Notes: generated by a model not told the origin, from the letters alone. A stretch of 24,000 bases of DNA from Aliivibrio sp. S3MY1 (GCF_028765575.1 NZ_JARACO010000002.1:130733-154732); one strand, 5' to 3'. Shown: positions 2,851 through 24,000, numbered from the stretch's first letter. Translations and numbers: made by a program.

Positions 2851-5221
2851 TTTCTTTTAATAACCTAAGAGAATTAGAGACAACAATAATAGAGCTACCA
2901 GACATTCCTACAACCGCAATATAAGGAGCAACTAAGCCCATTACTGCTAACGGTAATATAATGGCATTATAGCCTAAAGCCCATGCTAAGTTTTCACGAA
3001 TGATTTTTCGTGTTTTCATCGCAAGTTCTCGCGCTTCAATAAGTCGAGAAAGATTATCCCCCAGAAGGATCATATCTGCAGAAGCTTTTGCCACATCAGT
3101 TCCTGAGCCCATCGCTATTGATAGATGTGCGCCAGCGAGGGTCGGGGCATCATTAATGCCGTCACCAACCATTAAACTTACTTCTTGTTTTGGTAATGAT
3201 TTTAAATAATCCAATTTGCCTTGTGGCGTTGCACCTGAAATAACGTCATCGATAGCTAAAGCATTAGCCACTTTTTCTACCGATGAACTACTGTCACCAG
3301 TTAGCATAGTCACTTTAATACCTAAATGGTGCAGTGATTGAATTAAGGCTTGGCTTTCTTGGCGAATTGGATCATCCAATACAAAAGCAGCAACCGCTTG
3401 TCCATTTTTAGACAACCACACTTGGTAATCTTGATTATTTTCTAATTCACAATCTTTCGCAGCAAATGCTTTATGACCAATCTTCCATTCATCGTTACCA
3501 ATAACCCCTTGTAAGCCTGATCCAATGATATTTTCAACGCTATCAAAGTGAGTTTCAGTTGAGTCTCTATATTGTGAGAAAGCACGCGCAATAGGGTGAT
3601 TAGCAAAGGATTCCATTTCAGCCGCGATTTTTTTTGCGGTTTCCTCTGATATATCTGTAAAAGAATGGACTTGAGTTAATCGAATGTTTCCTTCGGTTAA
3701 TGTTCCTGTTTTATCAATAACTAAACGGTTAACTTTACACAGTGTTTCTAAAACATGGCCACGACGAAGCATTAAACCAAGCTGTGCTAAACGAGAAGTT
3801 GAACAGGTGATTGCTGTTGGTGTTGCTAGTGATAACGCACAAGGACAAGTCGCAACAAGAACTGAAAGCATGATCCAAAAAGCATCGTCTGGTTTTGTTT
3901 CGTGCCAGTAAAACCAAGTAAATGCAGAGATGATTAGAATACCAGCCACAAAATAACGAGCGACCAGATCTGCAATTTCTGCAACTTTAGGTTTAGACAT
4001 TTGCGCTTCATCTTGAAGTTTTACAATGTTTGATATCAAAGAATCGGCTTTGGTTTTGGTTACTTTTATGGTTAAGTTACCATCGCCATTAATGGTGCCA
4101 GCGTAAACGGGGTCGGTTTCTTTTTTTGCTACCGGCATTGATTCACCAGTAAACATAGACTCATCAATCGCACTGTACCCTGAAATAACAATACCATCCG
4201 CAGGTAAGTGCTCTCCAGGAGGAACAATTACCGTATCATCTACATCAAGTGTTCGAGCAGGGACTTTCTTTCCTGATGTTAATGTTGCCATTACTGGAAT
4301 AAGCTTTAAGAGGTTTCCTGTTATTGCAGCGGCTTTTCGACGTGCGCGCATTTCAAGGAATCGACCGAGTAATAAAAAGAAGGTAAACATGGCAACAGAT
4401 TCAAAGAAAACTTCACCAGATTCAGTAACGGTTGCTACGACACTTGCGAAATAAGCAAATAACATAGCGATAGAAACAGGGACGTCCATTCCTAATGTTC
4501 TTGCTTTTAAACTGCGCCACGCATTCATATAAAATGGCAGTGCAGAGTAGAGCATAACCGGCGTTGCAAAAACTAAGCTTACATAACGTAGGTAATTTCT
4601 AAACTCGGCATCAAGATCACCAAAGACTTCAAGATATAAAGCAACGGCAAGCATCATGACTTGCATCGTTGCTAAACCGGCAACCCCTAAACGATATAAG
4701 TATTGCTTCATTGAGCGGTGATATTCTTCTTCTTGTTTGTCTGCTTCAAATGGGGCAGCTTTGTATCCCAATTGATGAATAAGAGTAAGAAGGGTACTTA
4801 ATTTAGTTTCTTCTGGGTTCCAACTCAGCAATGCTCGATGTGTAGAGGTGTTCACTTTTATTTGATGAATACCTTGTGCATTAGTAAGTTGCTTTTCGAT
4901 TAACCAAGCACATGCAGCACAAGAAACGCCATCGAGTGACAGCGTCACTTCTTTGAAGTTGTTATTGGTACGTATGAACTCTTTTTGAATCTCATTATGA
5001 TCATAATGAGCTAGGGCTTTTAGTTGTTCTGGGACTAAATCTGCTTTATCGGCAGGGGCCGTACGATATTGATAATAAGAAGATAGGCCATTTTCAACGA
5101 TAGTTTGCGCTACTGATTCACAGCCTGGGCAACACATATCACGGGTTTCACCTAAAATATCGATTTGAAAACTAGAGCCTGAAGGTACAGGCTCACTGCA
5201 GTGATAACAATCCTTCGACAT
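2843..5221 (-). CDS. ccoI: Copper-translocating P1B-type ATPase CcoI/FixI
   Basis: 792-aa ORF with DKTGTLT, a transmembrane CPC motif, GDGINDAP and N-terminal Cys-rich metal-binding motifs. It sits between ccoH and ccoS. Confidence 0.92.
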   Translation of the reverse strand: MSKDCYHCSEPVPSGSSFQIDILGETRDMCCPGCESVAQTIVENGLSSYYQYRTAPADKADLVPEQLKALAHYDHNEIQKEFIRTNNNFKEVTLSLDGVSCAACAWLIEKQLTNAQGIHQIKVNTSTHRALLSWNPEETKLSTLLTLIHQLGYKAAPFEADKQEEEYHRSMKQYLYRLGVAGLATMQVMMLAVALYLEVFGDLDAEFRNYLRYVSLVFATPVMLYSALPFYMNAWRSLKARTLGMDVPVSIAMLFAYFASVVATVTESGEVFFESVAMFTFFLLLGRFLEMRARRKAAAITGNLLKLIPVMATLTSGKKVPARTLDVDDTVIVPPGEHLPADGIVISGYSAIDESMFTGESMPVAKKETDPVYAGTINGDGNLTIKVTKTKADSLISNIVKLQDEAQMSKPKVAEIADLVARYFVAGILIISAFTWFYWHETKPDDAFWIMLSVLVATCPCALSLATPTAITCSTSRLAQLGLMLRRGHVLETLCKVNRLVIDKTGTLTEGNIRLTQVHSFTDISEETAKKIAAEMESFANHPIARAFSQYRDSTETHFDSVENIIGSGLQGVIGNDEWKIGHKAFAAKDCELENNQDYQVWLSKNGQAVAAFVLDDPIRQESQALIQSLHHLGIKVTMLTGDSSSSVEKVANALAIDDVISGATPQGKLDYLKSLPKQEVSLMVGDGINDAPTLAGAHLSIAMGSGTDVAKASADMILLGDNLSRLIEARELAMKTRKIIRENLAWALGYNAIILPLAVMGLVAPYIAVVGMSGSSIIVVSNSLRLLKENG
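4936..4948. other. matS site (MatP-binding palindrome), exact match to the consensus
   Basis: GTGACAGCGTCAC matches GTGACRNYGTCAC at all 13 positions. It lies inside the ccoI coding sequence, 5.3 kb from dif. Confidence 0.7.
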
Positions 5222-5239
5222 ATGGTTTATTTACCTTAT

Positions 5240-5719
5240 CTATTTACCTAAGGGGAAAAAATCTTCAGTTGGAAAGTTTGTGCGGCCTTGAATCATCCAT
5301 GAACTATCATGAGGTAATAATTCAATAAACCAAGGGCCTGCTAATGGTTCATCTAGGTTAATACGATAAATATTTTTCGCATCTGATGTTAATAATTGCG
5401 AGAAATCGTGGTTTGGTAACGTTCTATGGGTGAAAGTAGCGTTAATTGCAGGGTTATGCTCTAACTTGCCTTTATCAATTTCAATTTCAATTGTATTACC
5501 TACACTACGAACCTTAGCAAAAATTGAAAGTTCTTGAGCAACTTTGATTTTTGAAAGATCGACGTTTATTGCTTTGCCTTTCTTGTAATAGTCTTCTGCG
5601 ACCAGATCGACATCATGCTCTACAAATAAAATGTAAGTTGATATACATGCAACGACAACGGTACCAGGAAGGATGATGAGAAACCAAGGCCAGAACTGCT
5701 TATACCAAGGTTGAGACAT
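5240..5719 (-). CDS. ccoH: FixH/CcoH family cbb3 oxidase assembly protein
   Basis: 159-aa ORF with the N-terminal PWYKQFWPWFL motif plus a TM, then DYYKKGKAIN, which is typical of CcoH. It lies directly upstream of ccoI. Confidence 0.85.
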   Translation of the reverse strand: MSQPWYKQFWPWFLIILPGTVVVACISTYILFVEHDVDLVAEDYYKKGKAINVDLSKIKVAQELSIFAKVRSVGNTIEIEIDKGKLEHNPAINATFTHRTLPNHDFSQLLTSDAKNIYRINLDEPLAGPWFIELLPHDSSWMIQGRTNFPTEDFFPLGK

Positions 5720-5782
5720 AGTAATGATTCCTATTAAAGATCTAGTTATTATGATTTTATATTAGAGATTCAATATAAAAAG

Positions 5783-5810
5783 GAAAAAAGCCCCTGTACA
5801 TGCAGGGGCT
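5783..5810 (-). terminator. Rho-independent terminator between ccoP and ccoH
   Basis: GC-rich stem agcccctg / caggggct (5789..5796 and 5803..5810), followed on the minus strand by a T-run (the A-run at 5784..5788 on plus). Confidence 0.8.
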
Positions 5811-5820
5811 ATTATTTTTA

Positions 5821-6792
5821 TTATTTGTTACTTAAGCTCCAGACATAGGCAGAAAGAAGTTGAATCTTCTCTTCACCTAATATGTCTTTCCAAGCTGGCA
5901 TCACACCTTGACGGCCATTAGCGACTGTTTCAGTAACATCGGCACGAGAATCGCCAAATAACCAATCATTGTCAGTTAGATCTGGTGCACCCAGAGCAGG
6001 GTTACCTTTACCATCTGTACCATGACAAGCAGCACAAACGATAAATCGTTGTTTACCTGCAGCGGCTTCTTTAACGTTTACTTTACGACCAGATAGGCTA
6101 AGAGTATAACTTACTACTTCTTTAACACCATCAGCACCTAAAGCATCTCCCCAAGCTGGCATGTTCCCAATACGACCATTCATAATAGTTGTTTTGATTG
6201 CTTGAGGCTCACCACCATATAACCATGCATTATCGGTTAGGTTAGGGAAGCCTTTCATGCCTCTTGCATCAGAGCTATGACATTGAGAACAGTTTTGTAG
6301 GAATAAACGTTGTCCTACTTTTAATGCTTCTTTGTCATTTGCAATATCCGTAATAGCTCGGAACTCAGAGGTTCCTGGCTTATATGCAAGCTTTGAAAAA
6401 GTTTCGCCAAAATTCGTATTTGCGTCATCTAATTCACGAGCAAATTGATCAAGTGTTTTCTCTTTATGAGAACGCTCAATCGATGCTCGTGATTCTTCTA
6501 CAGTACGAACGGTTTGGTCTGAACTTGTCCAACCTAAAATGCCTTTAAAGTTACCTAATCCAGGATAAAGAATTAAGTAAACAACCGCAAAGACGATGGT
6601 AGCCCAGAACATGTAAGTCCACCATTTTGGCAGTGGATTATTGAGTTCACGAATACCATCGTATTCATGACCCATATCTTCACCTTCTTCAACTCCTGTC
6701 GTATTTTTCAAGCAGAAACGAAGAAGTAGGCCACAACCAATTAATGTACCAATACTAATGATACTTATCCAGAGACTCCAAAAAGTACTCAT
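5821..6792 (-). CDS. ccoP: cbb3-type cytochrome c oxidase subunit III (diheme cytochrome c)
   Basis: 323-aa ORF with an N-terminal TM and two CxxCH heme motifs (CSQCH, CAACH). Its start overlaps the ccoQ stop by 4 nt. Confidence 0.95.
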   Translation of the reverse strand: MSTFWSLWISIISIGTLIGCGLLLRFCLKNTTGVEEGEDMGHEYDGIRELNNPLPKWWTYMFWATIVFAVVYLILYPGLGNFKGILGWTSSDQTVRTVEESRASIERSHKEKTLDQFARELDDANTNFGETFSKLAYKPGTSEFRAITDIANDKEALKVGQRLFLQNCSQCHSSDARGMKGFPNLTDNAWLYGGEPQAIKTTIMNGRIGNMPAWGDALGADGVKEVVSYTLSLSGRKVNVKEAAAGKQRFIVCAACHGTDGKGNPALGAPDLTDNDWLFGDSRADVTETVANGRQGVMPAWKDILGEEKIQLLSAYVWSLSNK

Positions 6793-6971
6793 TGTTTATC
6801 AACTCCTGTCTTGTTTTGGCTTGAAGTATCTTCTTGTTCATCAGCAAAAACCAAGTTAGCCGCTTCATCGAAACGAGCTGTCTGTTTTTTACTGTAAGCC
6901 CAGAAAATAATACCTATCATGCTGCAGAACAGAATGACAGTCCAAATTGCATGAATAGTTCCAGCGTCCAT
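6789..6971 (-). CDS. ccoQ: cbb3-type cytochrome oxidase subunit CcoQ
   Basis: 60-aa single-TM protein between ccoO and ccoP, overlapping ccoP by 4 nt. Confidence 0.85.
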   Translation of the reverse strand: MDAGTIHAIWTVILFCSMIGIIFWAYSKKQTARFDEAANLVFADEQEDTSSQNKTGVDKQ

Positions 6972-6981
6972 GTGGACCTCC

Positions 6982-7593
6982 TTACTTCATTGCATGACCA
7001 AGAGATTGAAGATAAGCGATAATCGCATCCATCTCAGTCTTGCCTTTAACCGCATCAGCCGCATTTTTTACGTCTTCTTCGGTGTATGGAACACCAAAGT
7101 TGTTACGGAAAATAGCAATTTTTTGCGATGTTAATTCACCATCTAACACGTTTTCTTCCAACCAAGGGAAGCCTGGCATGTTTGATTCAGGAACCACATC
7201 ACGAGGGTTGATGAGGTGAACACGATGCCATTCATCAGAATAACGATCACCAACACGAGCTAGGTCTGGACCTGTACGTTTAGAACCCCACAAGAATGGA
7301 TGTTCCCAAACGCTTTCACCAGCAACAGAGTAATGACCGTAACGTTCCGTTTCTGCACGGAATGGACGGATCATTTGGCTATGACAAACATTACAACCTT
7401 CACGGATGTAAATATCACGACCTTCCATTTCTAGTGGAGTGTAAACTCGTAAGTTTTCTACCGGTTCAGTCGTTTGTTTTTGGAAAATTAGAGGAGTGAT
7501 CTCAACTAATGCCCCAAAACTGATTGCAACGACGATTAAAACGGCAAGAAGACCCACATTTTTTTCTATGATTTCATGACGATTAGAACTCAT
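6982..7593 (-). CDS. ccoO: cbb3-type cytochrome c oxidase subunit II (monoheme)
   Basis: 203-aa ORF with an N-terminal TM and one CxxCH motif (CNVCH). It lies immediately downstream of ccoN. Confidence 0.95.
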
Positions 7594-7605
7594 AACATGG
7601 TCTCC

Positions 7606-9036
7606 TTATAGCACTGGCTGTGGAATTGCTTTTAGGCTGTTCTTCGGAGCAGAGATAGTCTTGTATGCGTTGTACGCAAGTAAGAACATTCCTGATAAGA
7701 AGATTAGACCGCCTAAAAAGCGAACAAAGTAGAATGGGTAAGATGCTTCTAGTGATTCCACAAAGCTGTACGTTAATGTGCCATCCGAATTTACTGCACG
7801 CCACATTAAACCCTGCATAACACCTGAAATCCACATTGCTACGATGTAAAGAACTGTTCCGATTGTCGCTAACCAGAAGTGAACATTGATTAGTGATACA
7901 GAGTACATACGCTCTTGACCAAATAGCTTAGGAATTAAGTGATATAAAGAACCAATTGAAACCATTGCAACCCAACCTAACGCACCTGAATGCACGTGAC
8001 CGATAGTCCAGTCAGTGTAGTGAGATAGGGCATTTACAGATTTAATCGCCATCATTGGACCTTCAAAGGTAGACATACCATAGAAAGACAGAGAGACAAT
8101 TAAGAATCGAAGAATAGGGTCATAACGAAGTTTATGCCAAGCACCAGACAGCGTCATTATACCATTGATCATGCCGCCCCAAGATGGTGCGAATAGAACT
8201 AATGACATCACCATACCTAGTGACTGAGTCCAGTCAGGTAACGCGGTGTAATGTAAGTGGTGAGGACCGGCCCAGATATAAAGTGAGACTAATGCCCAGA
8301 AGTGAACAATAGATAAACGGTAAGAATATACAGGACGTTCCGCTTGTTTTGGTACAAAGTAATACATCATGCCAAGGAAGCCCGCTGTCAGTAGGAAGCC
8401 TACTGCATTATGGCCGTACCACCATTGAACCATTGCATCAACAGCACCAGAATAAATCGAATACGATTTTGTCATCGATACTGGAACAGCAAGGCTATTC
8501 ACAATATGAAGAACGGCAACGGTTAGAATGAAGGCTCCAAAGAACCAGTTTGCAACGTAAATATGTGATGTCTTACGCTTAAACAAAGTTCCAAAGAAAA
8601 CAATAGCATACGCAACCCAAACTAAAGTGATTGCGATATCAATCGGCCACTCTAATTCTGCGTATTCTTTACCTGATGTCATACCTAGAGGCAACGTAAT
8701 TGCTGCTGCTAAGATAATTGCTTGCCAACCCCAGAAGGTGAACGCAACTAATGGACCACCGAACAAACGTGTTTGACAAGTGCGCTGAACAACATAATAA
8801 GATGTTGCAAACAGGGCACTTGTACCGAATGCGAAAATTACTGCATTTGTATGCAGAGGACGCAAACGGCTATACGTAAGCCACGGTGTGTCGAAATTAA
8901 GTTGCGGCCAAACTAATTGAGCGGCAATTAGTACACCCACACCCATGCCAACAATACCCCATAGTATGGTAACTAAAGAGAACTGACGAACAACGGTATA
9001 GTTGTAGTTTTGTTCATGCTGCTGTACTTGGCTCAT
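7606..9036 (-). CDS. ccoN: cbb3-type cytochrome c oxidase subunit I
   Basis: 476-aa polytopic heme-copper oxidase subunit I with conserved His-rich helices ([23 protein letters not shown]). It is the first gene of ccoNOQP. Confidence 0.95.
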
Positions 9037-9084
9037 AATTGCATGCTTCCACTTTTATTATAACTACACTTTACTTTCCATAGT

Positions 9085-9101
9085 GCGAACAAATTGTTCG
9101 C
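9085..9101. promoter_or_regulatory. Perfect 8+1+8 palindrome GCGAACAA-A-TTGTTCGC in the ccoN upstream/leader region
   Basis: Read directly from the sequence, 49 to 65 bp upstream of the ccoN ATG. I could not assign a regulator. Confidence 0.35.
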
Positions 9102-9303
9102 AATGCCACCCAAAATTCAACTTCAAATAATTGGATTTGTGACCCTTTTATTTTGAAATATTCCTTTTTAATGCAAAAATGGCATTTTCGGCATCAATGA
9201 TACTGCACTTGAAAAATGAATCATAGTTGATGCAGATGGTAATTTTACGCTTAAGCAACATTTTTCCTTTTTTTTTGAACTAGATAACACAGGTTTTTCA
9301 ACT

Positions 9304-9750
9304 ATGGCTATAGAAAAGTTAACAGGCCCTCGTTTATATCAACTTATTTTCTTATTGATCGTTCTGATCAGTGCATTTACATGGAGGACAATCACATATA
9401 TAGATCCAAATGATATTGATGAAGTTACAGAGGTTTGTGATATTACAGAACAAGCTTGTAGCTTTAATATCGATAGTAATCAGCTCATTATTGATGTAAA
9501 AGAGCGCCCAATTATGCAGAATACTGAAATAAACCTTTCAATTTCAAGTCTTGATACTGAGTGGACTTTAGAGGCTGAAGGTATCAATATGAATATGGGA
9601 AAACTGAAATTTCTGCATTTAAATGCCGATAATGCTGAAGAGAAGTACTCTGTTTTTTTACCAAAATGTAAACACAATGAGATGAAATGGATGGTCAACA
9701 TATCGAATGGAGATGAGAGAATAAATGTTAGTTTTAACTCAATAAAGTAA
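9304..9750 (+). CDS. Hypothetical membrane-anchored protein (orphan, AT-rich)
   Basis: 148-aa ORF with one N-terminal hydrophobic helix (LYQLIFLLIVLISAFTW). It has a weak Shine-Dalgarno sequence and no family I recognise. Confidence 0.5.
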   Translation: MAIEKLTGPRLYQLIFLLIVLISAFTWRTITYIDPNDIDEVTEVCDITEQACSFNIDSNQLIIDVKERPIMQNTEINLSISSLDTEWTLEAEGINMNMGKLKFLHLNADNAEEKYSVFLPKCKHNEMKWMVNISNGDERINVSFNSIK

Positions 9751-9926
9751 TTAATTTCATAGCGTTAAAAAGTAAATTATTAAAAATTAGAAACTCATGA
9801 AGAAAGGTAGTATTAGTATCTAAAAGTTAAGGTTATCTCGAGTTTTCTACACAGCAGCGTTAATCAAACTTAGTATCGTAATATTAGCGAACAGACTGCT
9901 TGATTGAAGTTTACTACGTAACAATA

Positions 9927-9980
9927 ATAAGCCAGTAATTTAATCTTAGATAAATTACTGGCTTATTATATTTTATTTTA
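9927..9980 (+). terminator. Terminator-like hairpin (possibly bidirectional) at the left edge of the dif gap
   Basis: Perfect 16-bp AT-rich stem ataagccagtaattta / taaattactggcttat (9927..9942 and 9951..9966) with an 8-nt loop, followed by tatattttatttta. Confidence 0.55.
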
Positions 9981-9983
9981 ACA

Positions 9984-9996
9984 GTTACAGTGTAAC
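9984..9996. other. matS-like palindrome (variant arms), left flank of dif
   Basis: GTTACAGTGTAAC, embedded in the perfect 15-bp palindrome AGTTACAGTGTAACT (9983..9997). It ends 193 bp before dif. Confidence 0.5.
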
Positions 9997-10036
9997 TAGT
10001 ATTATGGCAAAGCGTATTAAGAACAGAGATGTTCTA

Positions 10037-10086
10037 AGCTAATAATCATTAGATAGATACGAAGTATTATTTAATGATTATTAGCT
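10037..10086. repeat. Inverted repeat with 14-bp arms and a 22-bp spacer
   Basis: agctaataatcatt (10037..10050) is the exact reverse complement of aatgattattagct (10073..10086). Confidence 0.8.
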
Positions 10087-10189
10087 ATTTTATGGTAAAT
10101 ATGATTATGGTTAAATTACCTGTTATTGGAAGAGTTAGAGTAGTGATGGGGAAGATAAAACAGACTAATATCAAGTATAACCATATCTC

Positions 10190-10217
10190 ATTTAACATAA
10201 TATACATAATGCGCACT
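10190..10217 (-). other. dif: dif, the XerC/XerD chromosome dimer resolution site
   Basis: The minus strand reads AGTGCGCATTA-TGTATA-TTATGTTAAAT. It matches 26 of 28 positions of E. coli dif (GGTGCGCATAATGTATATTATGTTAAAT) and 27 of 28 of V. cholerae dif1 as I recall it. Confidence 0.9.
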
Positions 10218-10345
10218 GTGATATACAGTAATAATAGATGATAATTTACTGATAACCATGAGTTTTAGTCAATTATCTGTTATTTATGTCTTTTGAATTT
10301 GTATCTTATTATCTTAGTCAGTTACACTAACTTAATTATATGATT

Positions 10346-10358
10346 GTTACCTTGTCAC
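10346..10358. other. matS-like palindrome (one variant arm), right flank of dif
   Basis: GTTACCTTGTCAC, starting 128 bp after dif and lying 50 bp upstream of the lipoprotein gene. Confidence 0.45.
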
Positions 10359-10408
10359 AATTAGCTTCAACGTTGTTTTGTGTTCAAGTATTTACCTAAG
10401 GTTTTTAA

Positions 10409-10966: not shown

Positions 10967-11010
10967 TAAATCAATTAGTTATAGTGCACTAGGCTACGTT
11001 TGATTAATAA

Positions 11011-11043
11011 CTACATGAGCTGTTACTTTAATAGCTCATGTAG
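11011..11043. terminator. Hairpin between the convergent lipoprotein and matP genes (overlaps the matP stop)
   Basis: Perfect 11-bp stem ctacatgagct / agctcatgtag with an 11-nt loop. The flanking T-tracts are weak. Confidence 0.45.
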
Positions 11044-11469
11044 ATCTGCTTTAAGTGATGACACTGTTTGACTCGCCTTTTCTGTTCTCGAGGCCTCACT
11101 TAATAAATACTCAATCGTATCTGATAGTGTTGAGTCTAAATCCTGTGCTCTAAGAGAAAGCTTTTCCCACACACGATAATCTAAGTCGATTGATTTCTTA
11201 CGCGTATGTTCTTGTTCTGCATTAAAGTGACGCTTTCTTTTCGCTCGAATTGCTTGCTTTAGCTTATTCTCTAAATCAGGATTCATATGTTTTTGGATCC
11301 ATTCGAGTGATTTTACCGGCTCATGCTCTAGTTTTAAGAACTCATTAACCTGTTGTTGTTGTTCACTAGAATCGATATAACACGTAATTGATCCCCCCAT
11401 ACGATGCTTATTAAATAAATACATCCATTTCCAACCGGCTTCTAGATTTTCAAGTTGTTGGTATTTCAT
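11023..11469 (-). CDS. matP: Macrodomain Ter organiser protein MatP
   Basis: MKYQQLENLEAGWKW..., RAKRKRHFNAEQEHTRKKSIDL... is colinear with E. coli MatP. The track ORF starts 3 codons earlier at a GTG; I prefer the ATG at 11469. Confidence 0.93.
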   Translation of the reverse strand: MKYQQLENLEAGWKWMYLFNKHRMGGSITCYIDSSEQQQQVNEFLKLEHEPVKSLEWIQKHMNPDLENKLKQAIRAKRKRHFNAEQEHTRKKSIDLDYRVWEKLSLRAQDLDSTLSDTIEYLLSEASRTEKASQTVSSLKADLHELLK

Positions 11470-11502
11470 ATAACGCACTCATATTAAAGAGAATAAATTT
11501 GA

Positions 11503-11515
11503 GTGACAGTGTAAC
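11503..11515. other. matS-like palindrome in the matP promoter region
   Basis: GTGACAGTGTAAC, 34 bp upstream of the matP ATG. Its 15-mer AGTGACAGTGTAACT differs by one base from the site at 9983..9997. Confidence 0.55.
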
Positions 11516-11536
11516 TCTAGTTTGCATTATCATCAA
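11508..11536 (-). promoter_or_regulatory. Candidate sigma70 promoter of matP
   Basis: The minus strand reads TTGATG, 17 nt, TACACT. The -10 hexamer lies inside the matS-like site. Confidence 0.35.
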
Positions 11537-11649: not shown

Positions 11650-13317
11650 ATGCAGTTAGACACGCCATTTCTAATCGAACCTCAGTACGATCATATTCAA
11701 GATGCCTTGGATCAATCTCACTCAATCGACGCACAATCCCCCTATTCTCTGCAGCCAAAATTGACTCAAGCTTTAGAGGTTTTCTCTCATATAAATGGCA
11801 TTAATATACTGCAAATCAATGCGCTAGATAATCACGTTTATCGTGAATATATCGCAAACTGGTTATGCTTAAACACATCAAATCGCTTAGCTAATGACGA
11901 AATGGTCCCTGTTGTGGTTATTGAAAGTGCCTCTGAAGCAGAGCTTTTCGGTGTTTATCATAATAAAAGTGATATTCTTGAACATGGCTTATTACAAAAA
12001 GCCAATGGTGGTTTTCTAATTATTTCACCAAGTCTCCTACTGGCAAATCCACACTTTTGGCCAAGACTTAAAAGTTTATTACAAGGTCACCCGATAACAA
12101 TTTCAGCAAGTGATTCAAAGTCACCAATGCCGCATACGCACCGTTTAATGGTTGATGTTAAATTAGTTATCGTTAGTGATCGTGCTTTACTTGGGGAAAT
12201 CGAACAATTAGAGCCCGACTTGCTCGCTGGCATGTCAATGTTTGCAGAATATGAGTTTGATACCACATTAGAAAGTGACACGGTAACTGACTACATAAAA
12301 CTGATTAACTCACTATCTATTAAGAATAAACACTTACCGCTACAAAATGGTTCTGCTTTATTACCGTTACTCAAAGCAGGCGCAAGAGAATGTGAAGATC
12401 AAACTCGACTTAACTTGTGTTTATTATGGTTAAACTCTATTTTAGCTCATGCTTCTTTGGCTTCACTGTCAAAAGAATATATTACTGCTGATGATTTTAA
12501 CCAATCATTTAAAACCAAGTATCATATTGAATCCTATTTACCATCGAGAGCCCTAGATGATATTTTAGAGCAAAATATATTCATTGAAACTCAAGGTGAA
12601 CAAATTGGTCAAATCAATGGGTTAACTGTTGTCTCTGTACCCGGACACCCTATTTCTTACGGTGAACCTTCTCGAATTACCTGTGTCGTACATGCGGGTG
12701 ATGGTGAATTATCAGATGTAGAACGCAAAGTAGAATTAGGTGGCGATCTTCATGCTAAAGGCATGTTGATAATGCAAGCTTATATACTTAGCCAGTTAAA
12801 AACTCATGAACCACTTCCTTTTACGGCCTCGATGGTATTTGAACAATCTTACTGTGAAGTTGATGGTGACAGTGCAAGTTTAGCTGAGCTGTGTGCATTT
12901 TTAAGTGCCCTTGCGATAAAACCAATTAATCAAAGTTTGGCAATTACTGGTTCTGTCGATCAGTTCGGTATGATTCAACCAATTGGCGGCGTAAACGAAA
13001 AAATTGAAGCCTTCTTCCAGCTGTGTGAAAAACGCGGGTTAACTGGTGAGCAAGGTGTTATTATCCCAAAAACAAACGGAATTAATCTTGTACTTTCCGA
13101 TGAGGTAATTCAAGCAGTTAATGAAAAACAGTTTACTATTCATCTTGTTAGTCATGTTGAAGAAGCTGTAGAATTATTAACAGGATTACCATTGCAATCT
13201 GAAGAGCACGAATCGATTTTCTCTTTAATTGCTCAACATATAGAAGATGTTGAACATAATCCGAACCAGTGTTCCGCTTTATTCTGTCGTATTAAGAACT
13301 GGTTTAACCAGCGCTGA
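11650..13317 (+). CDS. ycbZ: Lon-like protease homolog (YcbZ/LonH type; C-terminal Lon S16 protease domain)
   Basis: 555-aa ORF whose C-terminal half is colinear with E. coli YcbZ (GEPSRITCVVH, ERKVELGG..HAKG, FEQSY.EVDGDSAS.AELCA, ITGSVDQFG..QPIGGVNEKIE). It lies between matP and fabA as in E. coli. Confidence 0.85.
   Translation: MQLDTPFLIEPQYDHIQDALDQSHSIDAQSPYSLQPKLTQALEVFSHINGINILQINALDNHVYREYIANWLCLNTSNRLANDEMVPVVVIESASEAELFGVYHNKSDILEHGLLQKANGGFLIISPSLLLANPHFWPRLKSLLQGHPITISASDSKSPMPHTHRLMVDVKLVIVSDRALLGEIEQLEPDLLAGMSMFAEYEFDTTLESDTVTDYIKLINSLSIKNKHLPLQNGSALLPLLKAGARECEDQTRLNLCLLWLNSILAHASLASLSKEYITADDFNQSFKTKYHIESYLPSRALDDILEQNIFIETQGEQIGQINGLTVVSVPGHPISYGEPSRITCVVHAGDGELSDVERKVELGGDLHAKGMLIMQAYILSQLKTHEPLPFTASMVFEQSYCEVDGDSASLAELCAFLSALAIKPINQSLAITGSVDQFGMIQPIGGVNEKIEAFFQLCEKRGLTGEQGVIIPKTNGINLVLSDEVIQAVNEKQFTIHLVSHVEEAVELLTGLPLQSEEHESIFSLIAQHIEDVEHNPNQCSALFCRIKNWFNQR
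12275..12287. other. matS-like palindrome (one variant arm, non-RNY centre)
   Basis: GTGACACGGTAAC, inside the ycbZ-like coding sequence. Confidence 0.4.
13297..13313. promoter_or_regulatory. FadR-box-like palindrome upstream of the fabA promoter
   Basis: AACTGGTTTAACCAGCG contains the perfect CTGGTT-T-AACCAG palindrome; compare the FadR operator core CTGGT-N3-ACCAG. It overlaps the last codons of the ycbZ-like gene. Confidence 0.45.
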
Positions 13318-14089: not shown

Positions 14090-14103
14090 GAAATTCTATT
14101 TAA

Positions 14104-14460: not shown

Positions 14461-14478
14461 TAGTCTTATAAATTGCTT

Positions 14479-16161: not shown

Positions 16162-16169
16162 TTAACTTC

Positions 16170-18083
16170 CTATTGTAGAGCTTCAAGTTCTTCCCAACGC
16201 TCGAATGCCACTTCCAACTCTTGCTCGGCTTGAGCTAGGCGTCCTAAGACTTCATCTGTCTTTTTAGGATCTTGTTGGAAGAAAGACGCGCTGTTCACTT
16301 TCTCTTGAAGTTCAGTAATTTCGTTTTCTAATTTTTCTAACGTTTCAGGTAACTGTTCAAGCTCACGCTGTAACTTATATGATAATTTCTTTGGCTTAGC
16401 AGCCTGCTCTACTGTTTGAGTTTTAGCAGCAACTGGTTCCGCTTTTTCTTTTACTTTTGGAGCCATCGCATCACGAGTCGCCTGTACATTAGCACGTTGA
16501 CGCTGTGCATCGTGATAGCCACCTACGAATTCTTCGATCTGGCCCTCACCTTCGAAGATCCAACTGGTCATTACTGTGTTATCAACGAACTGGCGATCGT
16601 GACTTACTAATAATAATGTACCCTGATAGTTGGCAAGTAATTCTTCTAAAAGTTCCAATGTTTCGATATCTAAATCATTGGTTGGTTCATCAAGAATCAA
16701 TAAATTGTTTGGACGAAGGAACAAACGCGCAAGTAATAGACGGTTTTTCTCACCACCAGACAATGCTTTAACAGGTTGACGAGCACGTTTTGGCGAGAAT
16801 AAGAAATCTTGTAAGTAGCTTAATGCATGACGCTCACGGCCACCCACTGTTACTTCTTGTTTACCATCTGCTAGATTATCAATAACCGTTTTTTCAGGAT
16901 CTAATGCTTCACGATATTGGTCAAAGTAAGCCACTTCTAATTTCGTACCACAATGCAATTTACCTGAATCAGGTTGCAGTTGGTCAAGCATCAGTTTAAG
17001 TAACGTACTCTTACCACAACCATTCGCACCAATTAGTGCAATTCGGTCGCCACGCATAACATTGAAGCTGAAGTTCTTAACAATGTTTTTGCCATCAATT
17101 GAGTAATGAAGGTTTTCAGCTTCAAAGACAATTTTACCTGAACGATTTGACTCATCCACTTGGATATTGGCTTTACCCATTACTTCACGACGCTCTGAAC
17201 GCTCACGACGTAATTGTTTTAATGCACGAACACGACCTTCATTACGAGTACGACGTGCTTTAATGCCTTCACGGATCCACGCTTCTTCTTGAGCAAGAAC
17301 TTTATCAAACTGTGCGTTTTGATCGGCTTCTACACGCAGTGCTTCTTCTTTCGCTAGTAAGTATTCTTCATAGTTGCCAGGGTAAGAAGATAAGTTACCA
17401 CGGTCTAAATCTACAATACGTGTCGCCATTGATTGAATGAATGCACGGTCATGCGAGATAAAGATAATTGAACCTTTAAAATCTTTTAAGAAAGTTTCAA
17501 GCCATTCAATCGTCGTTACGTCTAAGTGGTTGGTTGGTTCATCAAGAAGTAATACATCAGGATCAGAAACCAAAGCACGAGCTAACGCCGCTTTACGTTG
17601 CCAGCCACCAGATAAATCCGTTAATAGCGTATGACCATCTAATTTCAATGATTCAAGAACCGATTGAATACGCATATCAAAATGCCATGCATTAAGGTGA
17701 TCAATTTTTTCTTGAGCACGAGATAGCTTATTAATGTTTGATTCACTTGGATCAGTTTCTAGTAAATCAAGAAGACGGTGATACTCTTTTAAGTATTTAC
17801 CCGCCTCTGCTAGACCTTCTGATACGTAATCAAATACAGTGCCGCTCTCATTACGCGGTGGATCTTGCTCTAGACGAGAAACCACCACATCTTGATTAAT
17901 TTGAAGTTTGCCGTCATCCATAATGATGTCACCAGCAATCACTTTCATTAGCGTTGATTTACCTGCACCGTTACGGCCAACTAAACACACTCGCTCATTT
18001 TCTTGTAAAGCGAAATCAGATTTGTCTAATAGCGGATGATCACCAAACGCTAATTGACCGTTATTAATTGTAAGTAATGCCAT
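16170..18083 (-). CDS. uup: ABC-F family ATPase Uup
   Basis: 637-aa ORF with two ABC cassettes (Walker A GRNGAGKST and GANGCGKST; signatures LSGGWQRK and LSGGEKNR) and a C-terminal coiled-coil tail. It lies downstream of rlmL as in E. coli. Confidence 0.92.
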   Translation of the reverse strand: MALLTINNGQLAFGDHPLLDKSDFALQENERVCLVGRNGAGKSTLMKVIAGDIIMDDGKLQINQDVVVSRLEQDPPRNESGTVFDYVSEGLAEAGKYLKEYHRLLDLLETDPSESNINKLSRAQEKIDHLNAWHFDMRIQSVLESLKLDGHTLLTDLSGGWQRKAALARALVSDPDVLLLDEPTNHLDVTTIEWLETFLKDFKGSIIFISHDRAFIQSMATRIVDLDRGNLSSYPGNYEEYLLAKEEALRVEADQNAQFDKVLAQEEAWIREGIKARRTRNEGRVRALKQLRRERSERREVMGKANIQVDESNRSGKIVFEAENLHYSIDGKNIVKNFSFNVMRGDRIALIGANGCGKSTLLKLMLDQLQPDSGKLHCGTKLEVAYFDQYREALDPEKTVIDNLADGKQEVTVGGRERHALSYLQDFLFSPKRARQPVKALSGGEKNRLLLARLFLRPNNLLILDEPTNDLDIETLELLEELLANYQGTLLLVSHDRQFVDNTVMTSWIFEGEGQIEEFVGGYHDAQRQRANVQATRDAMAPKVKEKAEPVAAKTQTVEQAAKPKKLSYKLQRELEQLPETLEKLENEITELQEKVNSASFFQQDPKKTDEVLGRLAQAEQELEVAFERWEELEALQ

Positions 18084-18306
18084 TGTCTTCTAACCAATTC
18101 TTTAATTGCGATATATTGAATGGCCAATTGAGCTCAGATAAGCCATTGGCCACCACAGGTATTGTGACACCGTAACGAGAGAAAAGCTCATCGTTGAACG
18201 CTATGTCTACCGTGTCTACTTTTTCGATATCTACACCCACCTCCACAAGCAAGTCAAACGCTTGCTCGCAAAGATGGCAGCCTTCCGTGCTATAGAGAGT
18301 AATCAT
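18064..18306 (-). CDS. Glutaredoxin-like small thioredoxin-fold protein (DUF836 type)
   Basis: 80-aa ORF with a CxxC motif (EGCHLCE) near the N-terminus. Its 3' end overlaps the uup start by 20 nt. Confidence 0.7.
   Translation of the reverse strand: MITLYSTEGCHLCEQAFDLLVEVGVDIEKVDTVDIAFNDELFSRYGVTIPVVANGLSELNWPFNISQLKNWLEDNGITYN
18164..18176. other. matS-like palindrome (one variant arm)
   Basis: GTGACACCGTAAC, inside the glutaredoxin-like coding sequence. Confidence 0.5.
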
Positions 18307-18312
18307 TCGTCT

Positions 18313-20430
18313 CTAGTCTTCCTTGTGAGTAATAATCCAACAGTTATGAATGTGTTTATTACGAGCAAAATCAAGCGGCAATGTTTGCTTAGAAATATTC
18401 TTCGCTTTAAGCCCTGCTTTCTCTAGCGCTTCGTCATCCATTTTGAAGTTACGTTTATTGTTCGAGAATACGATTGTTCCGTTCTCACGTAGCATACGTT
18501 TTAGGTTCTCAAGTAACATGATGTGATCACGTTGAACATCAAACGTTTGTTCCATGCGCTTAGAGTTAGAGAACGTTGGTGGATCGATAAAGATTAAATC
18601 AAACTCACCTTCCGCTTGTTGTAGCCATTGTAGACAGTCTGCTTGTAAGAACTGATGCTGAGTACCGGTTTGATCATTGGTATTCATGTTCTTCTGTGCC
18701 CACTCTAGGTAGGTACGAGACATATCAATGGTCATGGTAGATTTTGCACCACCACAAGCCGCATGAACGGTTGCAGAACCGGTGTAAGCAAATAGGTTTA
18801 AGAAATCTTTGCCTGCTGCCATTTCACCAATCATTTTACGAGTTAACTTATGATCTAAGAATAACCCCGTATCTAGGTAATCTTGTAGGTTAACGATCAG
18901 TTTTACGCCGTACTCTTCAACATCAAAGTAGCGAGATTTCTCAGCCAGTTTTTGATATTGATTTTTGCCTGATTGCTTTTGACGAACTTTCAAAATTACG
19001 TTATTTGTTTCTACGCCAGTAACAAGAACCGTTGCACGGATCATATCGGTTAAACGACGACGTGTTTTATCTTCAGAAATTGTTTTTGGTGCGGCGTATT
19101 CTTGAATGATGATGTAATCTTTGTAAACATCAATCGCTGCATTGTAATCTGGTAAATCAGCATCGTAGATACGGTAACAATCTAGTTTCTCTTTACGAGC
19201 CCACTTACCAATCTTACCTAGGTTCTTTTTAAGACGGTTCATGAATTCAGGAGCAACTTCAACGTTAACCGCTTCTTTACGTTCAGCTGATTCTGTAATT
19301 GAGTAGTTTTTCTGAACACACGGTAATGCACCATTGTTCAGTTTAAATTGCTTATCAGCACGCATACGTATACATGCTAATAAATCATCGTTACTTGAAT
19401 AGATTGATGCAGTACAACCACCAAACTGTTCTTTAAGTTGGCGGCCAAACTCACTGTACAACGCAATCAATGCAGGCTCAGTACTTAAACGCTCACCATA
19501 TGGTGGGTTACAAATCACTACGCCATTTTCAAATGCTTCTGGACGCTCAATCTTAGTTGCATCACCAACATCAAACGTAATTAAATCTTCAACGCCAGCA
19601 CGACGGGCATTTTCACGAGCCGTTTGAATAACACGGTAATCACGATCAAAACCATAGAAATGGGTATCTACTTTCTTAACGCCACGACGACTCTTAACAC
19701 GAGCTTCTGAGCGAATTTCAGTCCATAGCTCTTCATCAAAATCATTCAGTGCTTCAAAACACCATTTCTCACGCTTAACACCAGGTGCCATTTCACAAGC
19801 CATTAGTGCCGCTTCAATCAGTAACGTACCTGAACCACACATTGGGTCTAATAATGGTTTGCTCTCATCCCAAGTACTACGAAGTACTAAGGCTGCAGCT
19901 AATGTTTCACGTAATGGAGCACGACCTGCTTCAGTACGGTAGCCACGTTGATGTAAACCTGAACCAATTAAGTCAAAGCCAAGAATCCCTTTCTCACCAG
20001 ATAAACGCATATGTACACGCAAATCAGGTTCAGCTTTATCAATATTTGGACGCTCTAAGTCAGCTTTTGTAAAACGGTCAACAATCGCATCTTTAACTTT
20101 TAATGCGCCGTATTGGCTGTTTCGAATCTCACGGTTAGTACCGTTAAAGTCCACCACCAATGTTTTATCAGCACTGAAATAATTAGGCCAATTGATTGCA
20201 GAAGCACCTAGATATAAATCCATATCATCACGAACATCAAACTCAGACAGAACTTGAATAAAACGTGACGCGATACGGCTCCATAAGCAACAACGATAAA
20301 CAACCTCGGTTGGAGCTTCAAACATTACCCCTGCATAAACCAATTTTGGGTCTGTAACACCAAGTGCAATAAGTTCGTCAGCGAGTAGGTTTTCAAGGCC
20401 TTTAGAAGTGATGGCTAAGTATTTTTTCAT
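18313..20430 (-). CDS. rlmL: Bifunctional 23S rRNA methyltransferase RlmKL (m2G2445 / m7G2069)
   Basis: 705-aa ORF with an N-terminal THUMP-like region, an NPPYGERL motif in the first methyltransferase domain and DPPTF in the second. Its size and neighbours (uup, zapC) match E. coli. Confidence 0.92.
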
Positions 20431-20928
20431 GGGATTCTTTTGGTTATTAAATTACCTCGCATTATACATGAATCTAGTTGAAAGAGGACAATTAGATTGT
20501 AGATAAACACAAAGTCCACCACCTAACTAATTTCTTAAAAAACATATAGTTAACAATTAACCATACGAACCCTTTCTCACTGCGTTTCTAAACAGAAACA
20601 AATAAGAGCAACTGGATCACGCAAAAAACTGGACTATACCAATTGATTTTCATATGGGTTATTTAGTTACACATCGGCGTAAATGAGGAATTTATTTATA
20701 TTGCAGATAATTCTATCAGTGGGATATTAAAAATAAATATGCGGAATCTTGGGACTAGATCTCATTTATAAGAGACAGTAATACGGGAAAATTAACACTA
20801 AATATACAAAATAAAAGCTAGAATGACTTCTTTTGGGGAAGTTTGAATAACACTTTAAAGGTGAGATAAGGCGTTTACGTGAATTAAGAGTGGTACTAAA
20901 GAGAAGTTAAAATAGAAAAGAAGGCTTA

Positions 20929-21468
20929 CTACCCTACTAATGCATAGTAAGCAGAGTTAACCACTTGCATCTTAGCCATGCGATCGTGCATCACTTTAAT
21001 CGGCTCACAAAACGCCATGTATTTGGTTGGATTAAGTGCAAACGAGTCCATATCTACCAACATACACATACTGGCACATTCGTAGTTCTCAACAATAATG
21101 AAACGTCCTTCACCTAAATCATTTTTAAGAGAGACCACTTCCCCTTCTTCAGGGAAATATCCTTCACCTTGTGGCTCAAAGAACCAACTTTTAGGTAACA
21201 TAGGCTTATGAAAGCGCTTTGCTGCTACACAGTTAAGTGCAAGTTCCACTTTACGAGGCTCTGATAGTGGAAGAAAAGAAATGTATTCTACAAACATTTG
21301 ATAGGCAGAGGCATCATCGACAGAGAATTTACATTGCTCAAAAGCACCATCGATAAGAACCTTACAAGGTAAATTCACACGAAAGACCATATCCATACCC
21401 AAATCGAGCATTAGAGATTGTGCTTTATTATCGTAATACCAATTCCATGTATCACTGGGTTTAAGCAT
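20929..21468 (-). CDS. zapC: Cell division protein ZapC
   Basis: [13 protein letters not shown]...MLDLG..., ...[10 protein letters not shown]... is colinear with E. coli ZapC ([24 protein letters not shown]..., LKPQMPKSWHF). The track ORF starts at an upstream TTG (21513); I prefer the ATG at 21468, giving 179 aa. Confidence 0.85.
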
Positions 21469-21610
21469 TATGGTTTCTCTCTTGAAAATGGGAAGCGTCC
21501 CTTCGTAAGCCAATCATCAATTACTGCAAATTATACTGAAAACTTGTGCTTATTTTCAGGCAAAAATATACTGATGCAATTAACTTCTAATTTTACAAGA
21601 GCTTAGGAAT

Positions 21611-21636
21611 AAAAAAAGGGGAAATTCACATTCCCC
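21611..21636 (-). terminator. Rho-independent terminator of pyrD
   Basis: Stem ggggaa / ttcccc (21618..21623 and 21631..21636) with a 7-nt loop, followed on the minus strand by a run of 7 T. Confidence 0.75.
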
Positions 21637-21684
21637 CTTCTAATCGAATAATCTGTAAGCAACTTTCACTACTTTTTATAACAA

Positions 21685-22695
21685 TTAGATATTATTCACA
21701 ATATCTTTAACTAATGCAGGACCTTTATAAATAAAGCCAGAGTACACTTGAACCAGATCGGCACCAGCCATCATCTTCTCTTTTGCCGCAACATAAGAGT
21801 CAACGCCTCCTACCCCAATGATAGGTAAGTTATCACCAAGCAGCTCTTTAAGACGACGAACAACTTCAGTACTGCGAGTTTGAACAGGACGACCACTTAA
21901 GCCCCCCATTTCTTCTGCGTGCTTCATGCCTTCAACCATAGAACGATCTAATGTTGTATTGGTTGCAATCACACCATCAATCTTAAACTTAATTAACGAA
22001 GCTGCAATTTGAGATAATTCGTTATCATCCAGATCTGGTGCAATTTTTAGTGCAATCGGAACATACTTACCGAACTTCTCTGCTAACTCTGTTTGTTTAT
22101 CTTTTAATTGAGAAAGAAGATCATCCAATGCTTCGCCATATTGAAGCGTGCGAAGTCCTGGAGTGTTTGGTGATGAGATATTAATCGCAATGTAACCTGC
22201 GTATTGATATACCTTCTCCATACAAATTAGGTAATCTTCAGTACCCTTTTCAATTGGCGTGTCTTTGTTTTTACCAATGTTAATACCAATAACACCATCA
22301 AACTTTGCTTTCTTTACGTTCTCAACAAGATTATCAACACCAAGGTTATTGAAACCCATACGGTTGATAATTCCTTCCGCTTCAATAAGACGGAATAGAC
22401 GAGGCTTATCATTACCTGCTTGAGGACGAGGAGTTACCGTTCCCACTTCAATAAAACCAAAACCCATTGCACCAAATGCTTCAATACATTCGCCGTTTTT
22501 ATCAAGACCAGCCGCAAGGCCAAGTGGGTTCTTAAAGGTAATGCCCATGACATCTACAGGTTTAGAAGCCAATTTTTGACGATAGAAGAGATCGAGAGGA
22601 GTGCCGGTAAAGCGTTTGAAATTTTGAATTGCTAGGTCATGTGCTTTTTCAGCATCAAGTTTGAAAATGCCAGCTCTGGCGATGCGATATAACAT
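21685..22695 (-). CDS. pyrD: Dihydroorotate dehydrogenase (quinone), class 2
   Basis: 336-aa ORF colinear with E. coli PyrD across its whole length ([57 protein letters not shown]). Confidence 0.97.
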
Positions 22696-22923
22696 TGTAA
22701 CTCCAAAATAAGTCCCGTATAAACGGAGAGTGATTATTCACTGATTCTATTCACAATTCAAACTTAATCGTACTTTATTCATTAATATTTACAGTTCACT
22801 TTCCACCCTTAATTTTAGTAAGAAATAATAAATCAATAAAAATGACTATTAATGTAGGTAAGTGAGAAAAATCTCGGGGAAATAACAAGGGGAAGTGAAT
22901 ATAAACTCACTCCCCCTATTATC

Positions 22924-22939
22924 AGGCAAACGTTTGTCT
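22924..22939. promoter_or_regulatory. PurR-box-like operator upstream of pyrD
   Basis: AGGCAAACGTTTGTCT has a core GCAAACGTTTG identical to the PUR box and matches about 13 of 16 positions of ACGCAAACGTTTGCGT. It sits within the 22-bp palindrome ATCAGGCAAACGTTTGTCTGAT (22921..22942). Confidence 0.5.
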
Positions 22940-22967
22940 GATCGCATTAATCAGCGAATTTGTTACT

Positions 22968-24000
22968 CTATTGTTTTGACGTACAGCTTAAGTTTAGTAA
23001 CGTAAGTTCTCTTAATGCTACCGAGAATTTAGCAAACTCATGGACTGAACCTACCTTAAATTCATTCAAGATATTATCCCAACGTCCTACTGATGTAGCA
23101 TTCTTTTCACACCACTCTTCAATGGCCTTTTCTACTGACTCGGTATCTTTGTACTCAGCAAGCACTAATTGAGTCAGTTGACGTTGCTGCCAATCTAAGT
23201 CTTCACGAAAAGAAGCACGAGCAAGCGCTTGCCAATGGTTATCAACACCTTGGTTATTAATCTGTTTTAAGAACCAATGCAGAGATAACTTATCACCCAG
23301 AACATAGTATAAACGCGCCGTCGTTGAAACCGGTTGCTTCATATCTACCGCAACAGCTGAAATGTCCATTGCAGAGTACAAGCTACTTAGCCGAGCAAGA
23401 ACATTACCTAGCTCACAAGGTACACCCATTTCTAGATAGTGATTAGCTTGTTCAATATGCTCAACTACTTCATCGTTAACTAAGTAACTATCAAGGTTAT
23501 CTTTAATCTCATAAACTGCAGGCTTATATTTTTCAATAAGCTCCTGAATTGACATATTTTGTGAGCCATTACGTAATAACCAACGAGTCACTCGACGAAT
23601 GGTTCTACGCATTGCAAATAATGCTTCATACTGAGCCTCTGTCGTTGAGATATTATCGAGATTACGGATCTGTTTAAATAAGTCACCAAAATCAAAAATA
23701 GCTCGAGTCGCTGAATACGCATTGGCTATATCAGTGACGGTGTAACCTGTTTCTTCTTGCAAACGAGTGATGAAGTTACAACCCATCTCATTAACCATCT
23801 GATTTGCTAAACAAGTCGCGATGATTTCTGAGCGTAGAGGATGATTATCCATTTCTGCTTTATAGTTACGTTGTAACTCTGTTGGGAAGTAAGTCGTCAG
23901 TAAATCAGCATGGTATGGATTATGTGCAATCTCATCACAGGCTAACTCATCCTTTAGAACCATTTTTCCATAAGCCACAAGAACTGAAAGCTCTGGACGA
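22968..24000 (-). CDS. NAD-specific glutamate dehydrogenase (large Bac_GDH type), C-terminal part; continues beyond the window
   Basis: The frame stays open past the track's GTG start to the window edge (...RPELSVLVAYGKMVLKDEL...). The C-terminal region resembles the ~1600-aa NAD-GDH family. Confidence 0.8.
   Translation of the reverse strand, partial: RPELSVLVAYGKMVLKDELACDEIAHNPYHADLLTTYFPTELQRNYKAEMDNHPLRSEIIATCLANQMVNEMGCNFITRLQEETGYTVTDIANAYSATRAIFDFGDLFKQIRNLDNISTTEAQYEALFAMRRTIRRVTRWLLRNGSQNMSIQELIEKYKPAVYEIKDNLDSYLVNDEVVEHIEQANHYLEMGVPCELGNVLARLSSLYSAMDISAVAVDMKQPVSTTARLYYVLGDKLSLHWFLKQINNQGVDNHWQALARASFREDLDWQQRQLTQLVLAEYKDTESVEKAIEEWCEKNATSVGRWDNILNEFKVGSVHEFAKFSVALRELTLLNLSCTSKQ
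23734..23746. other. matS-like palindrome (one variant arm)
   Basis: GTGACGGTGTAAC, inside the NAD-GDH coding sequence. Confidence 0.5.
23865..23877. other. matS-like palindrome (both arms variant)
   Basis: GTTACGTTGTAAC, inside the NAD-GDH coding sequence, 119 bp from the previous site. Confidence 0.4.

Follow-up and report, generated by a model that had tools for sequence, protein, structure and literature searches.

What accounts for the recurrence of one type of palindrome in a 24-kb stretch of the Aliivibrio sp. S3MY1 genome (GCF_028765575.1, NZ_JARACO010000002.1:130733-154732)? An initial annotation of this stretch, here called the window and numbered from its first base, had proposed that eight copies of the relaxed motif GTKAC-N3-GTMAC are matS-type sites, the targets of the protein MatP. 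We analyzed the window together with related loci and conclude, with a probability of approximately 0.93, that these palindromes are matS sites for MatP at the terminus of Aliivibrio chromosome I, around dif. The motif is in large excess over chance and specific in its spacing and arm sequence, dif and matP lie inside the cluster, and sites are conserved at orthologous positions, synonymous codon positions included. The window represents the terminus of replication of chromosome I, the larger Aliivibrio chromosome; the orthologous locus of A. fischeri ES114 lies 49.9% along chromosome I, with dif at approximately 1.4465 of 2.8975 Mb.

Eight palindromes in the window

A computational rescan recovered all eight sites with the positions and sequences first reported. 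The sole match to the strict matS consensus GTGACRNYGTCAC is the site at 4936..4948 (GTGACAGCGTCAC), recognized as such from the start, which lies in a P-type ATPase (ccoI-like) gene, 5.3 kb from dif. Two intergenic sites bracket the dif centre at -213 and +149 bp. These are 9984..9996 (GTTACAGTGTAAC), just past a hairpin at 9924-9969 and with both arms in the T variant (G to T at arm position 3, or C to A on the complementary arm), and 10346..10358 (GTTACCTTGTCAC). A matS-like site next to matP (GTTACACTGTCAC, read on the matP strand) occupies 11503..11515, in the intergenic region between the divergent matP and lonH-like genes, and 12275..12287 (GTGACACGGTAAC) lies within the LonH/YcbZ-like gene itself. 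The site at 18164..18176 (GTGACACCGTAAC) encodes R-Y-G-V-T in a small Glrx-like gene of 80 amino acids (18064-18306, minus strand, between uup and rlmL), which a 100-amino-acid open reading frame (ORF) filter had missed. The last two sites, 23734..23746 (GTGACGGTGTAAC) and 23865..23877 (GTTACGTTGTAAC, both arms T variant), lie 131 bp apart in the C-terminal part of the gene for a 1610-amino-acid NAD-glutamate dehydrogenase.

The tallies drawn up by hand are also correct. Five of the eight sites lie in coding sequence (4936, 12275, 18164, 23734, and 23865), the centres of six obey a purine-N-pyrimidine (RNY) pattern, and 9 of the 16 arms carry the T:A variant. The claimed excess of about 100-fold holds as well, since 100 dinucleotide-preserving shuffles of the window contained 0.07 sites on average and never more than 1, close to the earlier estimate of 0.09.

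The degenerate arm position had been defined after the first examples were seen, a caveat raised in the initial annotation itself. Relaxation, spacing, and orientation controls bear the choice out. Among the 15 symmetric one-position relaxations of the GTGAC/GTCAC arm, only G to T at position 3 adds sites and the other 14 add none, which justifies the post hoc choice. Likewise, all eight sites occur at the N3 spacing, with none at N0-N2 or N4-N9. Everted arms are absent from the window at N0-N15, and directly repeated arms are absent at N0-N10, with single matches at N11 and N12.

The same specificity is apparent across 80 Vibrionaceae matP loci with 10-kb flanks (1.46 Mb, from Aliivibrio, Vibrio, Enterovibrio, Grimontia, and Salinivibrio), in which the relaxed motif occurs 349 times at N3 versus 0 to 11 times at every other spacing. 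These sites comprise 108 strict, 217 single-T, and 24 double-T forms. The double-T class is approximately 29-fold enriched at N3 over other spacings (24 versus about 0.8). When the variant is not assumed and the arms opposite GTCAC at N3 are simply counted, GTTAC (217) is as frequent as GTGAC (216, palindromes counted twice), against a background of approximately 2. AT bias was ruled out as the source of T-arm usage. T arms make up 35% of all arms in Aliivibrio, whose loci have 37.7% GC, and 38% in the remaining genera, at 43.4% GC; their use is thus not simply a matter of AT drift.

The same count returned ATTAC opposite GTCAC 61 times at N3 in these loci, versus approximately 1.3 at control spacings. 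This enrichment suggests that arm position 1 may tolerate G to A in Vibrionaceae. A window sequence with one mismatch to the relaxed motif, ATTACAAGGTCAC at 12078..12090 in the lonH-like gene, is probably a ninth matS site.

dif and matP lie inside the cluster

The dimer-resolution site of XerC/XerD, dif, is located at 10190..10217 on the minus strand (AGTGCGCATTATGTATATTATGTTAAAT). It is identical to E. coli dif at 26 of 28 bases and is the only match in the window, where none is expected by chance. The matP gene lies 0.8 kb away, inside the same matS cluster (11023-11469, minus strand, ATG at 11469). Its 148-amino-acid product matches the NCBIfam MatP equivalog NF003471 above the curated cutoff (E = 1.3e-69) and has the same sequence as MatP of Aliivibrio sp. 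S3MY1 (100% identity), whose annotation lists PF06303 and PF17414. Its matches in the PDB are the MatP structures 7nyw, 3vea, and 4d8j (E = 4.5e-53 to 6.6e-50), the best being MatP of P. thracensis (7nyw, E = 4.5e-53). The initial annotation overlooked both dif and matP, which are the strongest evidence for its own reading. Together with the enrichment confined to N3 and the conservation described below, they support the matS-type identity that it had assigned.

This arrangement recurs in related loci. Counting the window, 43 sources have a dif site with 0 to 3 mismatches at a distance of 0.4 to 10 kb from matP. In 8 of 11 Aliivibrio loci a matS site lies approximately 150 bp from dif, and in two more the distance is approximately 300 bp. 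Across the 43 sources, matS density is highest next to dif, at 41 per 100 kb in the first kilobase; it falls to 32, 22, and finally approximately 10 at 3 to 7 kb. The window as a whole carries 33 sites per 100 kb, about 11 times the original figure for E. coli, in agreement with the unusually high density first claimed. Extending the window along its contig to 42.6 kb added two exact sites, at window coordinates -1262 and 29399. Of the resulting ten, four lie within 2.1 kb of dif, and the remainder are spaced at about one per 5 to 6 kb.

Two controls come from matP neighbourhoods elsewhere. In 81.8 kb from four Pasteurellaceae genera (39 to 41% GC), used as a non-terminus control since their fabA-lonH-matP block is not beside dif, no relaxed-motif site was found. 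A 20-kb block around E. coli matP contains a single match, the site next to matP itself.

A probable bidirectional terminator was also noted at 11011-11043, between matP and a convergent DUF1439 lipoprotein gene. It is a hairpin with a 15-bp stem that overlaps the stop codon of matP.

Conservation at orthologous loci and synonymous codon positions

Individual window sites were followed through the aligned relatives. The motif at 18164 is retained in 49 of 50 aligned Vibrionaceae loci, with a spacer that varies among A, C, and G and a change of GTG to GTT, at the permitted position, in three loci. At 4936 it is retained in 13 of 15 loci, including those of V. cholerae and Salinivibrio, and at 12275 in 7 of 10 Aliivibrio loci. 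The 13-mer at 10346 is identical in all nine alignable Aliivibrio loci. An orthologue of 9984 is present only in the closest relative (locus L001), which marks this site as young or fast-evolving. These counts exclude 23734 and 23865, which lie beyond the 10-kb flanks of all relatives.

The initial annotation had suggested examining synonymous positions, and three intragenic sites have orthologues that could be aligned for this purpose. Of their nine wobble positions within motif arms, eight are invariant, and the last is limited to the permitted A/C. Flanking wobbles, by comparison, have mean majority frequencies of 0.73 to 0.81, and spacer wobbles vary. At 4936 all three arm wobbles are invariant in 10 loci against an average of 0.74 for the flanking ones; at 18164 the arm wobbles are invariant in 12 loci; and at 12275 they are invariant or A/C only, with a freely varying spacer wobble. 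Because arm wobbles are kept while those of spacer and flanks vary, selection acts on the DNA motif itself. Coding constraint was ruled out by this analysis as the cause of the intragenic conservation.

T-variant arms are found in established MatP targets

Published targets in other species include the T variant. In P. thracensis, GTTACAGTGTAAC served as the cognate high-affinity matS in electrophoretic mobility shift assays (EMSA) and cryo-electron microscopy (cryo-EM), and GTTACNNNGTAAC is described as the abundant terminus-proximal, cognate high-affinity site; the MatP of this species binds the E. coli consensus approximately 10-fold worse than reported for other MatPs (PMC8669397). Window site 9984 is identical to the EMSA/cryo-EM 13-mer. 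In V. cholerae, the MatP sites identified by chromatin immunoprecipitation sequencing (ChIP-seq) are similar to E. coli matS yet more diverse (PMC11564523).

For E. coli, 12 matS coordinates can be derived from the strain table of PMC10945525, whose site list is based on ChIP-seq. The seven coordinates that we examined all fall exactly on motif matches, six of them strict; the seventh is matS20 (1,721,917; GTTACAGGGTCAC), which has a GTTAC arm. Between matS14 and matS19 there are four numbered slots for five candidates (two strict, two single-T, and one double-T), and it is probable that the single-T sites were called by ChIP and the double-T site was not. This double-T motif (GTTACCTGGTAAC, at 1,602,251; L084 27252) lies 1.8 kb from matS14, near dif and inside the terminus macrodomain (Ter). 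If it is indeed uncalled, E. coli MatP would discriminate against double-T sites, unlike P. thracensis MatP.

The relaxed motif had been put forward as the local MatP target in place of the enterobacterial consensus. As a MatP target it stands; as a purely local replacement it does not, because E. coli matS20 and P. thracensis share the T arm. The relaxed consensus is sound, and taxa differ in how often the T variant is used. A strict GTGACRNYGTCAC scan finds only one of the eight window sites, and the weight given to the position-3 variant therefore has a strong effect on motif-based matS censuses in Vibrionaceae.

Proposed function and competing explanations

If the sites act as they do elsewhere, each of the eight palindromes, and at least one variant, would bind one MatP dimer, which by homology would contact the major groove with its helix alpha4 and strand beta1. 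If the homologous systems of V. cholerae and E. coli are a guide, dense MatP around dif would keep MukBEF out of the region and delay the separation of sister termini, and sister dif sites would be held at mid-cell until division. MatP binding to both G- and T-variant arms and the density dependence of the cellular effect are known from published work on other species, and by analogy all eight sites would be occupied in Aliivibrio.

Some observations weigh against the identification of the cluster as working matS. The step from those species to Aliivibrio MatP, both for binding these sites and for the same cellular effect, is one of analogy. In E. coli, ChIP probably did not call the double-T site at 1,602,251, and double-T forms may therefore be weak for some MatPs. 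Conservation supports five of the eight window sites; of the other three, 9984 has an orthologue in the closest relative alone, and 23734 and 23865 lie beyond the aligned flanks. For confinement of the relaxed motif to a terminus domain, the support is indirect, from the control neighbourhoods and from published work on A. fischeri. Finally, the 24-kb window contains neither an FtsK-orienting polar sequence (KOPS; GGGNAGGG) nor a clean GC-skew switch, so that terminus polarity is not independently visible at this scale.

Several of these points favor a narrower account, in which only 4936, 10346, 11503, 12275, and 18164 are working matS. The others, 9984, 23865, and perhaps 23734, would seldom be occupied by MatP, being weak, of recent origin, or in decay. 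The restriction of 9984 to the nearest relative and the probably uncalled double-T site of E. coli fit this account. Double-T sites, at 24 of 349, are also at roughly half of the approximately 50 expected if arms combined independently, and in V. cholerae 66 good motif matches are unbound in vivo (PMC11564523). However, double-T sites are still some 29-fold more frequent at N3 than at other spacings, 9984 belongs to the pair bracketing dif, and its sequence is a demonstrated high-affinity site for P. thracensis MatP, the best PDB match of the window protein. We regard this narrower account as unlikely, though it deserves to be taken seriously.

It is far less probable that the palindromes are operators of some other dimeric protein recognizing GTNAC-N3-GTNAC, with a coincidental likeness to matS. 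Nothing specific speaks for such a protein beyond the location of three sites in intergenic DNA near gene starts, whereas five sites lie inside genes, and the genes are functionally unrelated. The motif is moreover the one that experiments have established as the MatP target in E. coli and P. thracensis; matP and dif lie in the cluster, and the motif is absent from matP neighbourhoods away from the terminus. An origin by chance or composition, or from copies of a dispersed repeat or mobile element, has a negligible probability. It could appeal to a degenerate pattern that was set after examples had been seen, but none of the 100 shuffles reaches two sites, the spacings N0-N2 and N4-N9, everted arms, and the other 14 relaxations all return zero, and sites are retained at orthologous positions across genera. 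A comparison of the site flanks revealed no mutual similarity. The sites are thus not copies of a repeat element, and this origin was ruled out. The identification as matS sites for MatP around dif remains the best explanation of the cluster.

A matS-like site precedes matP

The site at 11503 ends 33 nt before the matP ATG, and its counterpart is found in all 80 Vibrionaceae loci, 22 to 46 nt before the start codon, as GTTAC-N-CT-GT[C/A]AC on the matP strand, with the distal arm always in the T variant. The E. coli K-12 site (GTTACACGGTAAC, at 1,018,460; L081 13461-13473) ends 12 nt before the ATG. This site is located outside Ter, 118 kb beyond matS1 and 570 kb from dif, and the 28 ChIP-called matS sites do not include it. 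A query with the E. coli MatP protein returned only E. coli variants (97 to 100% identical); a broader Enterobacteriaceae set was therefore represented by metagenome loci L102-L181 (564 kb, 79 scorable), with MatPs 90 to 100% identical to that of E. coli. All 79 scorable loci have the site at exactly -25, in five variants that differ only at K/M positions or in the spacer: GTTACACGGTAAC (45 loci), GTTACACGGTCAC (22), GTTACGTGGTAAC (8), GTGACACGGTAAC (3), and GTGACAGGGTAAC (1). In the same set, GTKAC-N1-GTMAC occurs 25 times and all other non-N3 spacings are empty; the N1 excess probably stems from a single conserved sequence shared by some closely related loci.

The site is also present in a lineage whose MatP is 55% identical (L095), and it is degenerate in two AT-rich lineages. 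Upstream of matP in the four Pasteurellaceae genera and in an endosymbiont with 27% GC, it was sought and is absent. Universality of the site was ruled out by these absences and the degenerate copies. Among its nine distinct sequences, none is strict and all have at least one T-variant arm, compared with 31% strict sites among nearby Vibrionaceae matS. A promoter scan of the matP region was uninformative (13 consensus matches versus 9.5 expected). Its sole relevant match was the GTGACA arm of 11503, a potential -35 element for the divergent lonH-like gene.

The site next to matP is always sub-consensus, is conserved upstream of matP in both Vibrionaceae and Enterobacteriaceae, and persists in enterics far outside Ter. 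This hints at autoregulation, in which MatP would control its own synthesis through a candidate operator, a sub-consensus matS just upstream of matP; we put this forward tentatively, at slightly less than even odds. Such a weak operator would be occupied only when more MatP is present than the matS sites of the chromosome can bind, and it would set the MatP level to the number of those sites. If true, this would constitute a simple, so far undescribed MatP feedback circuit. Nothing relevant on a matP promoter, on matP expression or autoregulation, and no report of the matP-proximal site, was found in the searchable literature, which does not extend to the original 2008 Cell paper or RegulonDB, and the site is possibly an unreported extra beyond the known system.

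A distant MatP-like protein, P0166 (27% identity, PF06303), was encountered in two metagenome loci (L100 10001-10462 and L101 8966-9427; Logan SRR30247007/8). Its neighbours are genes of conjugative elements (TraG_N, DUF4942, and zf-dskA_traR), and a perfect GTGACAACGTCAC lies approximately 74 nt into its coding sequence, as the sole motif match in 20 kb. These loci may represent a mobile element that carries a MatP/matS pair of its own.

Gene content of the window

The gene order of the window is uspE, fnr, a ccoNOQP-ccoGHIS-type cluster, dif, the DUF1439 lipoprotein gene, matP, lonH-like, fabA, rmf, DUF3466, uup, glrx-like, rlmL, zapC, pyrD, and gdh. The pyrD-to-matP block is shared with E. 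coli, where it lies at 1.005-1.019 Mb. Within it, zapC encodes a Z-ring-associated division protein (PF21083, PF07126; 20929-21468, minus strand), which places the Aliivibrio division and segregation genes zapC and matP both at most 11 kb from dif. Rfam and tRNA scans of the window gave no match.

Between ccoN and dif, the stretch 9037-10190 is very AT-rich (approximately 31% GC). It contains an ORF of 148 amino acids (9304-9750, plus strand) with no NCBIfam or Pfam match, followed by the hairpin at 9924-9969, a strong terminator with a 19-bp stem. Xer-exploiting integrative elements insert next to dif. As DNA in this position is where such elements integrate, the stretch may be a remnant of one.

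Comparison with known systems

The closest characterized system is chromosome I of V. cholerae, a member of the same family with an orthologous MatP (approximately 72% identity) and the same gene block beside dif. Orthologues of 4936 and 18164 are retained in its locus (L037). There too, coding sequences contain matS sites, dif is flanked by them, and their local density peaks at the centre of Ter (PMC4177673; PMC11564523). The two differ in density, as the V. cholerae TerI averages 6.1 sites per 100 kb and L037 has 4 in the corresponding 20 kb, against 33 per 100 kb in the window. They also differ in the kind of evidence, since ChIP and cell-biology work exists for V. cholerae and the Aliivibrio sites are known from sequence alone. 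The window supports a view developed for V. cholerae, in which selection acts on how densely matS sites are packed near dif; here this selection is visible at synonymous codon positions.

A published survey places matS density at its peak at dif in 16 gamma-proteobacteria, with 66 sites in the 526-kb Ter of A. fischeri (12.5 per 100 kb) and 18.8 per 100 kb in P. angustum (PMC10945525). The A. fischeri peak at dif is the same phenomenon as the cluster described here, and the window density, about 2.7 times the A. fischeri Ter mean, fits such a peak. The survey differs in its E. coli-derived matrix, its 100-kb resolution, and its choice of another Aliivibrio species. Its searchable main text and supplements make no mention of kb-scale bracketing of dif, of the embedding of matP, or of the matP-proximal site.

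P. thracensis shares the same G to T and C to A change at arm position 3 (PMC8669397; PDB 7nyw). However, the double-T form is abundant there, while Vibrionaceae mix G and T arms (T share 35 to 38%) and single-T sites predominate (217 of 349). The 28 ChIP-seq sites of E. coli have the same 13-bp architecture and the same role, and matS20 likewise carries a GTTAC arm. In contrast to the window, E. coli sites are mostly strict (six of the seven with coordinates examined) and number approximately 3 per 100 kb, and matP lies approximately 570 kb from dif and 118 kb outside matS1.

The core finding is thus a correct, independently derived instance of a known system, in which the high density of A. 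fischeri had already been published. It adds a well-documented example of a very dense, kb-scale matS cluster that brackets dif and holds matP inside it, and it illustrates that a terminus can be recognized in raw sequence by the matS motif alone.

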